DNA of 3,120 nucleotides from a phage. The notes under the pieces are model-generated. The model did not search any database. It was not told where the DNA came from and saw nothing but the letters and a program-made list of their open reading frames with translations. Location: sequence record PZ195127.1; one strand, written 5' to 3'. How positions within the stretch are numbered: the first letter of the stretch is position 1; every line of letters begins with the position of its first letter. The translations under genes and the position numbers were made by a program. This document shows, in pieces, positions 1 to 3,120 of this stretch.

Positions 1-6
1 ACCATG

Positions 7-26
7 CCGTCAGGTTTAGGTGACGG
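7..26 (+). other. Predicted 5'-UTR RNA hairpin (6-bp stem CCGUCA/UGACGG, 8-nt loop)
   Basis: Positions 7..12 (CCGTCA) are perfectly complementary to 21..26 (TGACGG), with loop GGTTTAGG at 13..20. Levivirus 5' leaders are highly structured and this structure gates maturation-gene translation. I judged the fold by eye, with no energy calculation. Confidence 0.35.
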
Positions 27-41
27 TATATTCCATATACC

Positions 42-46
42 GGAGG
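42..46 (+). promoter_or_regulatory. Shine-Dalgarno sequence (GGAGG) for the maturation gene
   Basis: GGAGG at 42..46, 4 nt upstream of ATG 51. The spacing is on the short side. MS2 has GGAGG upstream of its A-gene start as well. Confidence 0.6.
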
Positions 47-50
47 ATTT

Positions 51-1223
51 ATGTTTCCGAAGTCAAATATCGATAGAAATTACAAGGTTAAACTTATCTC
101 GTACGACAAGAAAGGGAATCTTGTTTCCGACGACTCATATGAGCAAGTCGAAAACTATCTCTTTCAAAATCGTTCGAGTACGTATAAACCTGGTTATATC
201 CGTCGCGACTTTCGAAGACCGACTAACTTCTGGAACGGCTATCGCTGTTTCAATCAGCCAGTTGGTACCTTCATTCGGAAACTCTCTGATGGTGGGAGAC
301 AAGTTGCTGATTATGGTATCGTGAACCCTAATAAGTTCACTGCCAACAGCCAGCACTTGGGGGACAACATGGTAATTTACCCTGGTCCCTTTTCTATAAA
401 TATTGATCAGCGTGCTTCTGTCGAAGTCCTCAATAAGCTTTCACAATCAAACCTCAATATTGGGGTTGCGATTGCTGAAGCTAAGATGACTGCTTCATTA
501 CTCGCTAAACAATCTATAGCTCTCATCAGAGCCTACACTGCCGCAAGGCGCGGTAATTGGCGAGAGGTGTTTTCGCAACTCCTCATCTCCGAACACCGTT
601 TCAGAGCTCCTGCTAAGGATCTCGGAGGTCGATGGCTCGAACTGCAGTACGGTTGGTTACCCCTTATGAGCGATTTGAAAGCTGCATATGATTTGCTTAC
701 GCAAACCAAACTGCCTGCTTTCATGCCCTTGAGGGTTACCCGTACCGTTGGCGGAACGCACAATTACAAAGTGCGCAACGTCGAGTCTGCAGGGGATACT
801 TGGTCCTATAGCGATCGTTTGTCGGTGAATTACCGAATATGGTACTTCATTTCCGATCCACGCCTCGCATGGGCTAGTTCCCTCGGGCTTCTTAACCCTT
901 TGGAAATCTATTGGGAAAAGACGCCCTGGTCGTTCGTCGTTGACTGGTTCTTACCTGTCGGTAATCTTATAGAAGCCATGAGTAATCCTCTTGGCCTCGA
1001 CATTATTTCCGGCACGAAGACCTGGCAACTTGAATCAAAACTTAATGCGACGCTTCCGGCTTCGGGCTGGTCTGGAACTGCAAAGTTGTCTGCATACGCG
1101 AAAGCATATGACAGATCTACTTTCTATTCCTTTCCCACCCCTTTGCCGTATGTGAAGTCTCCACTTAGTGGACTTCACTTAGCGAATGCATTAGCCTTAA
1201 TCAACCAACGCCTGAAAAGGTAA
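51..1223 (+). CDS. mat: Maturation (A / assembly) protein, 390 aa; pilus-binding virion protein of an ssRNA phage
   Basis: ORF 51..1223 starts at ATG 51, the first start after an in-frame TGA at 21..23, with GGAGG at 42..46 upstream. The translation contains blocks I recognise from MS2 A protein, e.g. [18 protein letters not shown](Y/F)[33 protein letters not shown] and C-terminal YVKSP.S...ALALI.QRL. Size and first position in the genome fit levivirus A protein. Confidence 0.93.
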
Positions 1224-1239: not shown

Positions 1240-1632
1240 ATGGCAACTTTACGCAGTTTTGTACTCGTCGATAATGGCGGTACGGGGAATGTTACTGTCG
1301 TTCCTGTTAGCAATGCCAACGGCGTCGCTGAGTGGCTTTCTAATAACTCTCGCAGTCAGGCTTATCGCGTGACTGCCAGTTATCGTGCGTCAGGCGCGGA
1401 CAAGCGCAAATACACCATCAAACTTGAAGTGCCGAAGATCGTCACCCAGGTTGTGAATGGTGTTGAGCTGCCTGTTTCCGCATGGAAGGCTTACGCCTCT
1501 ATTGACCTGACCATCCCTATCTTTGCTGCAACCGACGATGTGACCGTTATTTCCAAGTCACTCGCTGGTCTGTTCAAAGTTGGGAACCCTATCGCTGAAG
1601 CTATCTCTTCTCAGAGCGGCTTCTACGCCTAA
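1240..1632 (+). CDS. cp: Coat (capsid) protein, 130 aa, GA/MS2-type levivirus coat
   Basis: ORF 1240..1632 translates to MATLRSFVLVDNGGTGNVTVVPVSNANGVAEWLSNNSRSQAYRVT...LTIPIFAATDD...GNPIAEAISSQSGFYA. This aligns along its length with MS2 coat (..FVLVDNGGTGDVTV...ANGVAEW.SSNSRSQAYKVT...LTIPIFATNSD...GNPIPSAIAANSGIY) and matches my recollection of phage GA coat almost exactly. GGAG at 1228..1231 lies 8 nt upstream of the ATG. Stop is TAA at 1630..1632. Confidence 0.97.
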   Translation: MATLRSFVLVDNGGTGNVTVVPVSNANGVAEWLSNNSRSQAYRVTASYRASGADKRKYTIKLEVPKIVTQVVNGVELPVSAWKAYASIDLTIPIFAATDDVTVISKSLAGLFKVGNPIAEAISSQSGFYA

Positions 1633-1823
1633 TGGGTCTGAAAGCAAAACATAAGGAAAACCTATGTTCCGATTCACAGAGATCGAAAAGACTCTATGTA
1701 TGGATCGCACTCGCGATTGTGCTGTCCGATTTCACGTCTATCTTCAGTCATTGGATTTGGGGTCTTCTGATCCTCATTCTCCAGACTTTGATGGACTTGC
1801 CTACCTTCGTGATGAATGTTTAA
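1632..1823 (+). CDS. lys: Lysis protein L (single-gene lysis protein), 63 aa, overlapping coat stop and replicase 5' end in a different frame
   Basis: The ATG at 1632..1634 overlaps the coat TAA (1630..1632) as TAATG. The product MGLKAKHKENLCSDSQRSKRLYVWIALAIVLSDFTSIFSHWIWGLLILILQTLMDLPTFVMNV has a basic N-terminus and a hydrophobic membrane-spanning C-terminal half. It resembles MS2 L in the segment LY V(W/L)I.LAI(V/F)LS(D/K)FT, including the conserved Leu-Ser dipeptide. Position (coat/replicase junction, alternate frame) is canonical for levivirus L. Confidence 0.85.
   Translation: MGLKAKHKENLCSDSQRSKRLYVWIALAIVLSDFTSIFSHWIWGLLILILQTLMDLPTFVMNV
1649..1667 (+). promoter_or_regulatory. Translational operator hairpin (coat-protein binding site / replicase translation repressor and packaging signal) containing the replicase AUG
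   Basis: ACAUAAGGAAAACCUAUGU folds as a 5-bp lower stem (A1649-U1667, C1650-G1666, A1651-U1665, U1652-A1664, A1653-U1663), a bulged A1654, a 2-bp upper stem (G1655-C1662, G1656-C1661) and a 4-nt loop AAAA (1657..1660). This has the same architecture as the MS2 operator ACAUGAGGAUUACCCAUGU (bulged A, 4-nt loop, replicase AUG in the 3' arm). The Shine-Dalgarno-like AAGGA at 1653..1657 and the replicase ATG at 1664..1666 are sequestered in the stem. Confidence 0.8.
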
Positions 1824-3120
1824 CTAAACATCCCTCACTCGGAGACAGTAATTCGGACGCACGCCGTAAGGAATTGGCATATGCCAAACTTATGGATAGT
1901 GATCAAAGATGCAAAATCCAAAACAGTAACGGATACGACTACTCTCATATCGAGAGTGGCGTACTGAGCGGTATACTCAAGACTGCTCAGGCCCTTGTGG
2001 CGAACTTGCTTACGGGTTTTGAATCTCACTTCCTGAACGATTGTTCATTCTCCAATGGAGCCTCACAAGGGTTCAAGTTGCGGGATGCAGCGCCGTTTAA
2101 GAAGATCGCTGGGCAAGCAACCGTTACAGCTCCTGCTTATGACATCGCCGTGGTCGCCGTTAAAACGTGCGCACCGTGGTATGCTTATATGCAGGAAACG
2201 TATGGCGACGAGACCAAATGGTTTCGTCGGGTATACGGCAACGGTTTGTTTTCTGTTCCGAAGAACAATAAAATAGATCGGGCTGCCTGTAAGGAGCCTG
2301 ATATGAATATGTACCTTCAGAAAGGGGCGGGATCTTTTATAAGAAAACGCCTTCGCTCTGTCGGTATAGATCTTAACGATCAAACGCGCAATCAGGAATT
2401 AGCCCGACTCGGCAGCATTGATGGTTCGCTCGCTACTATTGATCTTAGTAGCGCTAGCGATTCCATCTCTGACCGCCTCGTCTGGGATTTACTTCCACCG
2501 CACGTTTATTCATACCTCGCTCGTATTCGTTCGTCGTTCACTATGATCGACGGGCGGTTACACAAGTGGGGTCTATTTTCTACCATGGGTAACGGCTTTA
2601 CGTTCGAACTCGAGTCCATGATCTTTTGGGCTCTGAGCAAGAGTGTAATGCTGTCCATGGGTGTTACTGGCTCATTAGGCATCTACGGTGACGATATAAT
2701 CGTTCCTGTTGAGTGTGCCCCAACTCTCCTTAGGGTACTATCCGCTGTAAACTTTCTTCCAAATCGGAAGAAGACGTTTATAACGGGTTACTTTCGTGAA
2801 AGTTGCGGTGCTCACTTCTTTAAAGGTGCCGACATGAAACCTTTTTACTGCAAGCGGCCAATGGAAACCCTTCCCGATGTCATGTTGCTTTGCAACAGGA
2901 TAAGGGGTTGGCAGACCGTTGGTGGAATATCAGATCCGCGGCTCTTTCCGATTTGGAAGGAGTTTGCTGATATGATTCCGCCGAAGTTTAAGGGTGGATG
3001 TAACCTGGATCGCGACACTTACCTCGTTTCACCGGATAAACCTGGTGTCACATTGGTTCGTATCGCTAAGGTACGCTCTGGTTTTAACCATGCGTTCCCA
3101 TACGGCCATGAAAATGGCCG
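1664..3120 (+). CDS. rep: Replicase beta-subunit (RNA-dependent RNA polymerase), 3'-partial: about 485 codons present, no stop within window
   Basis: Hand translation from ATG 1664 is open to the window end (last complete codon ends 3118). The product MFRFTEIEKTLCMDRTRDCAV...SSDPHSPDF...YLRDECLTKHPSLG...VPKNNKIDRAACKEPDMNMYLQKGAGSFIRKRL.SVGIDLNDQ...DGSLATIDLSSASDSISDRLVW..LPP..YSYL.RIRS...FSTMGNGFTFELESMIFWA...GIYGDDII...RKTF..G.FRESCGAHF..G.D.KPFY aligns block-for-block with MS2 replicase. The catalytic GDD is at 2687..2695 (YGDD 2684..2695). Not in the ORF track, presumably because it has no in-window stop. Confidence 0.95.
   Translation, partial: MFRFTEIEKTLCMDRTRDCAVRFHVYLQSLDLGSSDPHSPDFDGLAYLRDECLTKHPSLGDSNSDARRKELAYAKLMDSDQRCKIQNSNGYDYSHIESGVLSGILKTAQALVANLLTGFESHFLNDCSFSNGASQGFKLRDAAPFKKIAGQATVTAPAYDIAVVAVKTCAPWYAYMQETYGDETKWFRRVYGNGLFSVPKNNKIDRAACKEPDMNMYLQKGAGSFIRKRLRSVGIDLNDQTRNQELARLGSIDGSLATIDLSSASDSISDRLVWDLLPPHVYSYLARIRSSFTMIDGRLHKWGLFSTMGNGFTFELESMIFWALSKSVMLSMGVTGSLGIYGDDIIVPVECAPTLLRVLSAVNFLPNRKKTFITGYFRESCGAHFFKGADMKPFYCKRPMETLPDVMLLCNRIRGWQTVGGISDPRLFPIWKEFADMIPPKFKGGCNLDRDTYLVSPDKPGVTLVRIAKVRSGFNHAFPYGHENG

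Follow-up and report, generated by a model that had tools for sequence, protein, structure and literature searches.

Gene content and relatives of the window

The window, meaning the whole stretch of 3,120 nucleotides of the phage record PZ195127.1 that was analyzed, carries genes for the maturation protein, the coat protein, a lysis protein (L) and the replicase beta-subunit, together with two hairpins that lie one on either side of the coat-lysis junction (Table 1). The maturation gene, through its Pfam match, provides the genome context that marks the window as belonging to a levivirus, and the coat gene occupies the same annotated place in the GA, DL20 and DL10 records.

Table 1. Annotated features of the window, in order of position, with the evidence on which each annotation is based
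Feature	Position	Strand	Content	Evidence
Maturation (A) protein gene	51..1223	+	390 aa; GGAGGA Shine-Dalgarno	ORF; Pfam Phage_mat-A, 213 bits
Coat gene	1240..1632	+	130 aa; GGAG Shine-Dalgarno upstream	ORF; Pfam Levi_coat, 132 bits
3' coat hairpin, putative lysis control	1597..1623	+		Folding; GA record annotation
UAAUG junction	1630..1634	+	Coat UAA and L AUG share A1632	
Lysis gene L	1632..1823	+	63 aa plus stop (TAA 1821..1823)	ORF; Pfam; PHROG; relatives
Replicase operator hairpin	1648..1668	+		Folding; GA record annotation of equivalent site
Replicase beta-subunit gene	1664..3120	+	Cut by window end	Pfam RNA_replicase_B, 716.6 bits; relatives' annotation
LS motif codons (Leu31-Ser32)	1722..1727	+		L translation and alignment

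When the window was compared with the phage collection by megablast, the closest match was BZ13 strain DL20 (96.0% identity, 100% of the window), followed by GA (X03869 / NC_001426; 95.0% nucleotide identity over the full window) and BZ13 strain DL10 (94.9% over the full window). KU1 and T72 also aligned over the full window, at about 85% identity, and the match to MS2-type genomes was limited to a conserved replicase segment. The GA, DL20, DL10, KU1 and T72 records all belong to Emesvirus japonicum, the species of the group II F-specific leviviruses. The window shares with the type members of this species both genome-wide identity and the maturation-coat-(lysis)-replicase gene order, and by these matches it is identified as the greater part of a group II levivirus genome of the GA/BZ13 type (Emesvirus japonicum). 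No entry identical to the maturation protein was found in the large gene-position index, and the strain appears to be absent as such from the collections searched. With a best genome match of 96% (DL20) and a maturation protein without an exact match, the window is a strain-level variant, itself new, of a species that is already known.

The L reading frame and its product

Positions 1621..1640 of the window read ttctacgccTAATGggtctg, and the RNA around this site consists of UUCUACGCC followed by UAAUG and GGUCUG. The coat TAA (1630..1632) and the L ATG (1632..1634) have the nucleotide A1632 in common, and the replicase ATG (1664..1666) lies inside L, giving an overlap between L and replicase of 160 nt (1664..1823). 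Three different frames are used by the coat (frame 1), L (frame 0) and replicase (frame 2) genes, and L spans the coat-replicase junction in a frame of its own, as is typical of L-type genes. Upstream of the coat-lysis junction the L frame is closed by a TGA at 1596, and no start codon lies between this stop and 1632. An earlier reading made without database searches (the sequence-only reading) had already proposed the one-base overlap of the coat stop and the L start, as well as the course of the L frame across the operator hairpin and into replicase for 160 nt; a script check confirmed the former and the coordinates bear out the latter.

Neither the frequency of TAATG nor the length of the ORF is significant evidence for L when taken alone. 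About 3.4 copies of TAATG would be expected in the window and four are there, and the other frames contain several spurious ORFs of 54-106 aa. Conservation was assessed by aligning the window with five complete relatives (GA, DL20, DL10, KU1 and T72), and among the non-canonical plus-strand ORFs of 50 aa or longer 1632..1823 alone was open throughout this set. The L frame is also open in seven metagenomic or IMG/VR loci. Closure of this frame in homologous phages, which the sequence-only reading had named as an observation that would count against the gene, was not encountered, as the frame is open at the same location in every homologue examined. The UAAUG junction itself is identical in GA, DL20, DL10 and one IMG/VR locus (L007).

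Control ORFs similar in length to L are interrupted by stops in the relatives. The ORFs at 4..324, 991..1155 and 2055..2276 were rejected as conserved genes on the same grounds, namely stops or lost start codons in the relatives. ORF 4..324 (plus strand, 106 aa), which shares its sequence with the beginning of the maturation gene but uses a different frame, is open in the window and DL20 only and has 4-8 stops in GA, DL10, KU1 and T72, a distribution that identifies it as a chance ORF. ORF 2055..2276 (plus strand, 73 aa) lies in an alternative frame inside replicase and coincides with an island of low variation; its ATG is replaced by ACG in GA and DL20, a stop occurs at codon 31 in KU1 and T72, and it is probably not a gene.

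The operator hairpin at the start of replicase (-4.9 kcal/mol, z = -3.38 on folding) holds the replicase Shine-Dalgarno (SD) sequence and AUG, and falls inside codons 6-13 of L. Its AAAA loop is of the GA type and one A is bulged (ACAUA-A-GG AAAA CC UAUGU), and the hairpin corresponds to a potential coat-protein binding stem-loop in the GA record (GA 1733..1753, equivalent to 1648..1668 of the window). The Rfam MS2 operator model matches 1647..1667 at 18.1 bits, under its gathering score of 40. This sub-threshold match was not accepted as support, the hairpin being based on folding and the GA annotation, and the difference between the two scores indicates that the Rfam family misses group II operators at its threshold.

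The third codon positions of replicase are far less variable within the L overlap than in the remaining replicase (7.5% vs 45%; Fisher p = 1.5e-8). A sliding analysis of six group II genomes found equally low synonymous variation outside the overlap, at 1240..1389 (the first 150 nt of coat), 1844..1933 and 2024..2143, where 3-10% of third positions vary compared to 40-75% elsewhere. No conserved overlapping ORF was found in any of these islands. Since similar suppression exists outside the overlap, the signal is not creditable to L coding alone, and synonymous-site suppression was rejected as proof of dual coding and counted as no more than supportive. The pattern suggests that the islands reflect RNA-structure or regulatory constraints, or else a recently shared central segment of the genome. 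Three substitutions near the L C-terminus (Q51R, M61T and N62S) alter the amino acid in L but not the one in replicase, and their pattern fits with a variable L tail.

The product of L matches the Pfam family PF11125 (Phage_MS2_lysis) at 29.3 bits (E = 8.9e-7; gathering score 25) and the PHROG family phrog_8450 with E = 1.2e-32. Its identity to the L proteins annotated in GA, DL20, DL10, KU1 and T72 is 97-98%. The alignment with GA and MS2 L proposed by the sequence-only reading gave 97% identity to the former and 41% to the latter (BLASTP, over 51 aa, E = 6e-10). A core of LYVxIxLAIxLSxFT is invariant in the alignment from the group II L proteins through MS2 L, with the LS dipeptide located at residues 31-32.

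L-like lysis proteins follow a common plan consisting of a basic N-terminus, a hydrophobic domain, an LS dipeptide at the C-terminal end of this domain, and a variable C-terminus (PMC10229422). All four parts are present in the L of the window. Residues 1-21 are net basic (six K/R vs two D/E), hydrophobic stretches are found at residues 21-31 before LS and 41-55 after it, and the natural amino-acid changes are mostly C-terminal (residues 49-62). A single-sequence AlphaFold model, which is a weak type of evidence, consists of one long helix with a pLDDT of about 89-95 for residues 21-60. The product had earlier been described as keeping the LS dipeptide and a hydrophobic C-terminal helix; the dipeptide and the helical C-terminal part are indeed present, but the hydrophobic region is not C-terminal only, as its two stretches flank LS.

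On the strength of this homology, the product of 1632..1823 is assigned as a single-gene lysis protein of the MS2 L type. KU1 L, which is 97% identical to the L of the window, lyses E. coli when expressed from pBAD24, and mDAP incorporation continues during its action as it does with MS2 L (PMC10614894). By analogy with KU1 L, the L of the window would be expected to have the same lytic, type II activity.

Translation of L

The 25 nt before the AUG at 1632 read CUUCUCAGAGCGGCUUCUACGCCUA, and inspection of these 25 nt found no SD sequence in the form of GGAG, AGGA or GAGG. Each of the other three starts has an SD, namely GGAGGA for maturation, GGAG for coat and AGGA for replicase. The L AUG is essentially unpaired in the local centroid fold, and with the AUG accessible in this way and no SD present, the missing SD explains the lack of independent initiation better than masking of the start would. 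An overlapping UAAUG followed by an ORF without its own SD is the arrangement associated with SD-less coupling. The anatomy of the junction, the homology of the product, the absent SD and the conservation of the ORF in relatives are all observations made on the window itself.

Experimental evidence on how such a junction is read is available from GA. In PMC9955659 (PLoS One, 2023), where the EMBO J work of Inokuchi et al. (2000) is summarized, the GA lysis gene is presented as SD-less and read 'exclusively' by ribosomes that completed coat at UAAUG. According to the same source, deletion and substitution analysis of GA revealed no sequence permitting lysis-gene expression independent of coat translation, and downstream reading was abolished when the upstream start codon was destroyed. 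It was likewise abolished by the change of UAAUG to UAAua while the ribosome recycling factor (RRF) was active, about 25% of the upstream ribosomes read a downstream reporter in frame with the AUG, and free ribosomes were excluded from the downstream ORF (PMC9955659). Between 1618 and 1680 only two bases, 1629 and 1677, distinguish the window from GA. The former is the base directly 5' of UAAUG, where the last coat codon is GCC in the window and GCG in GA. The dependence of L on coat translation is something we infer from GA, the experiments on which can safely be expected to transfer to this 95-97% identical strain.

Our preferred reading, to which we give a probability of about 0.92, is that 1632..1823 is the lysis gene L and that it is translated by reinitiation of coat-terminating ribosomes at UAAUG. 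Ribosomes translating coat would terminate at UAA (1630..1632), and a fraction of them would re-engage the AUG (1632..1634) and read L in the new frame, crossing the replicase operator hairpin and the 160 nt that L shares with the start of replicase. As only a fraction of the coat ribosomes would reinitiate, the output of L would be a fixed, small share of the coat output, and this low, coat-linked output would delay lysis until coat, and hence virions, accumulate. The L protein, which has a basic N-terminus and, after it, a largely hydrophobic helix bearing LS, would then trigger autolysis with net peptidoglycan synthesis unblocked. It is debated whether the particle that reinitiates is a 70S ribosome, a 30S subunit or a ribosome that has been released and has bound again (PMC9955659, PMC12548453).

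The sequence-only reading, which had correctly recognized a levivirus lysis gene from the raw letters, had also tied L to coat termination, and this part agrees with the published work on GA (PMC9955659). Its stronger statement, that the UAAUG arrangement is what such coupling requires, has to be given up as MS2, fr and KU1/T72 couple at other spacings, and a metagenomic relative has UAA-GUG in place of UAAUG. It had further called the coupling established for MS2, which is sound with regard to the mechanism; the analogy is unneeded given the direct evidence from GA, and for the -50 nt arrangement of MS2 a review describes RNA unfolding in addition to scanning (PMC12548453).

Coupling could alternatively be achieved by unfolding of the RNA, in which case coat ribosomes would melt local structure such as the hairpin at 1597..1623 and free 30S subunits would start at AUG 1632. 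This hairpin (GAAGCU..CUCU-UCUC-AGAG.GGCUUC; -10.2 kcal/mol, z = -2.08 on folding) does lie directly upstream of UAAUG, the GA record labels the equivalent stem-loop (GA 1683..1707, window 1598..1622) with 'pot. function in lysis gene control', and unfolding is described as the more likely mechanism for the -50 nt arrangement of MS2 (PMC12548453). However, free subunits would find no SD at L, AUG 1632 is unpaired in the centroid fold and leaves little to unmask, and at a spacing of -1 the terminating ribosome physically covers the L start. The lower stem of the hairpin is also broken in three of the relatives, by A1599>C in DL20 and by A1599>U and C1620>G in KU1/T72, with no compensation. The hairpin was on this account rejected as a conserved control element, and with its weak conservation a role in lysis control is putative and unproven. 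Taken together with the exclusion of free ribosomes from the downstream ORF in the GA experiments (PMC9955659), these points make unfolding an improbable main route, and it may possibly contribute to L coupling in a minor way.

Less probable still is independent initiation, by which AUG 1632 would be a weak ordinary start for free ribosomes and the overlap would serve genome compaction only. AUG is a strong start codon and is largely unpaired locally, but L is without an SD, and the GA work described in PMC9955659 found no coat-independent sequence and lost downstream reading once the upstream start was removed.

A coat-L fusion produced by ribosomes that shift frame near the coat end deserves very little credence. 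In the L frame, 11 open codons (1599..1631) precede the AUG, and a shift within this stretch would enter L, but no slippery heptamer is evident there. Such a fusion would not need the AUG, whereas in GA the change of AUG to AUA abolished downstream reading with RRF active (PMC9955659), and the site accommodates an 18-nt insertion in KU1 and T72, where UUG is used. Lastly, the notion that the L ORF is not a gene at all, being a chance frame kept by the operator and other RNA structure constraint, could draw on the spurious ORFs of the window and on the low synonymous variation of nearby regions in which no overlapping ORF is conserved, but it is effectively refuted by the significant Pfam, PHROG and MS2 L homology, by the retention of the LS motif even in the distant relative described below (OGVK01001857.1) and by the published lysis assays of the near-identical KU1 L (PMC10614894).

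Comparison with other junction geometries

Reinitiation at UAAUG, as preferred here for the window, is best compared with the group II relatives first. The GA record places coat at 1325..1717, the 'put. lysis protein' at 1717..1908 and replicase from 1749, with a one-base overlap and a 160-nt overprint. The window shares with GA the UAAUG overlap, a 63-aa L that is 97% identical, the operator and the 160-nt overprint, an SD-less L and the upstream hairpin; it differs from GA by about 5% nucleotide divergence, by two residues in L (Q16E and I49Y) and by the last coat codon, which is GCG in GA. DL20 and DL10 (FJ483839 and FJ483837, respectively) are the nearest genomes, and their coat, lysis and replicase genes are annotated identically to the GA layout. 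Their L proteins are 98% identical to that of the window with one change each (Q51R in DL20 and N62S in DL10).

KU1 and T72 (AF227250 and FJ483838, respectively) have an L that is 97% identical, in the same frame and with the same operator/replicase overlap. Unlike in the window, an 18-nt insertion splits UAAUG and L starts at a UUG located 18 nt past the coat stop. Their L is 64 aa long owing to a further 3-nt insertion, compared to 63 aa in the window. The 18-nt insertion with a UUG start was found in KU1, T72 and four metagenomic or IMG/VR contigs, the UUG context being GCAUUGGGUCAG. In KU1 (1707..1725 of the locus, L003), the insertion opens with seven nucleotides (GGCGUAG) complementary in inverted order to the bases at the end of coat (CUACGCC), and the two are predicted to pair perfectly over 7 bp in a hairpin whose loop is the coat UAA stop. 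Another KU1-type sequence with the 18-nt insertion (metagenome contig OGVH01001890.1, 350..420 of locus L012) reads CAGUAAUGGGUCAG and starts L at an AUG at +18. Both AUG and UUG occur naturally at the displaced (+18) L start.

A third geometry was observed in a more distant Emesvirus-like phage (metagenome contig OGVK01001857.1, 3570 nt; locus L014, 1385..1957), the nearest relative of which is the ssRNA phage AVE017 at 76%. Its L-like ORF encodes 60 aa with an FLSKYT motif and matches phrog_8450 with E = 4e-17. The start codon of this ORF is a GUG that adjoins the coat UAA and is in frame with coat (UAA-GUG), an arrangement in which readthrough of the stop codon would in principle yield a coat-L fusion.

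Stop-to-start spacing, the start codon and the 1597..1623 hairpin might together act as an evolvable dial by which each strain sets its lysis timing, although we consider this doubtful. If it were so, the reinitiation rate of the GCC-UAAUG junction of the window would differ measurably from that of GA, and the known mechanism would at most be refined.

MS2 (V00642) resembles the window in having a homologous L with the LS motif, in the overlap of L with the coat-replicase junction, in a replicase frame that is +2 relative to L and in the coupling of L expression to coat termination. In contrast to the window, MS2 L consists of 75 aa and starts 50 nt inside coat (coat 1335..1727, L 1678..1905), a more upstream position that the sequence-only reading had stated correctly. 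About 17 extra N-terminal residues of MS2 L, encoded inside coat, are without a counterpart in the L of the window. For MS2, a 2025 review (PMC12548453) describes both unfolding and scanning, the lysis hairpin being presumably opened by the terminating ribosome, and it reports that constructs of fr couple at -38, -50, +23 and +35.

The UAAUG layout of the coat-lysis junction is already known, having been annotated in GA in 1986 and experimentally dissected in that phage, and the GA junction has since become a model on which ribosome recycling and translational coupling without an SD are studied (PMC9955659). Our finding leaves this understanding unchanged, the window representing a strain-level variant of a known species and no new system. 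The junction is of the same type as the UAAUG and AUGA stop/start overlaps of bacterial operons, and it is unlike them in that the downstream ORF is without any SD and is overprinted on a third gene.
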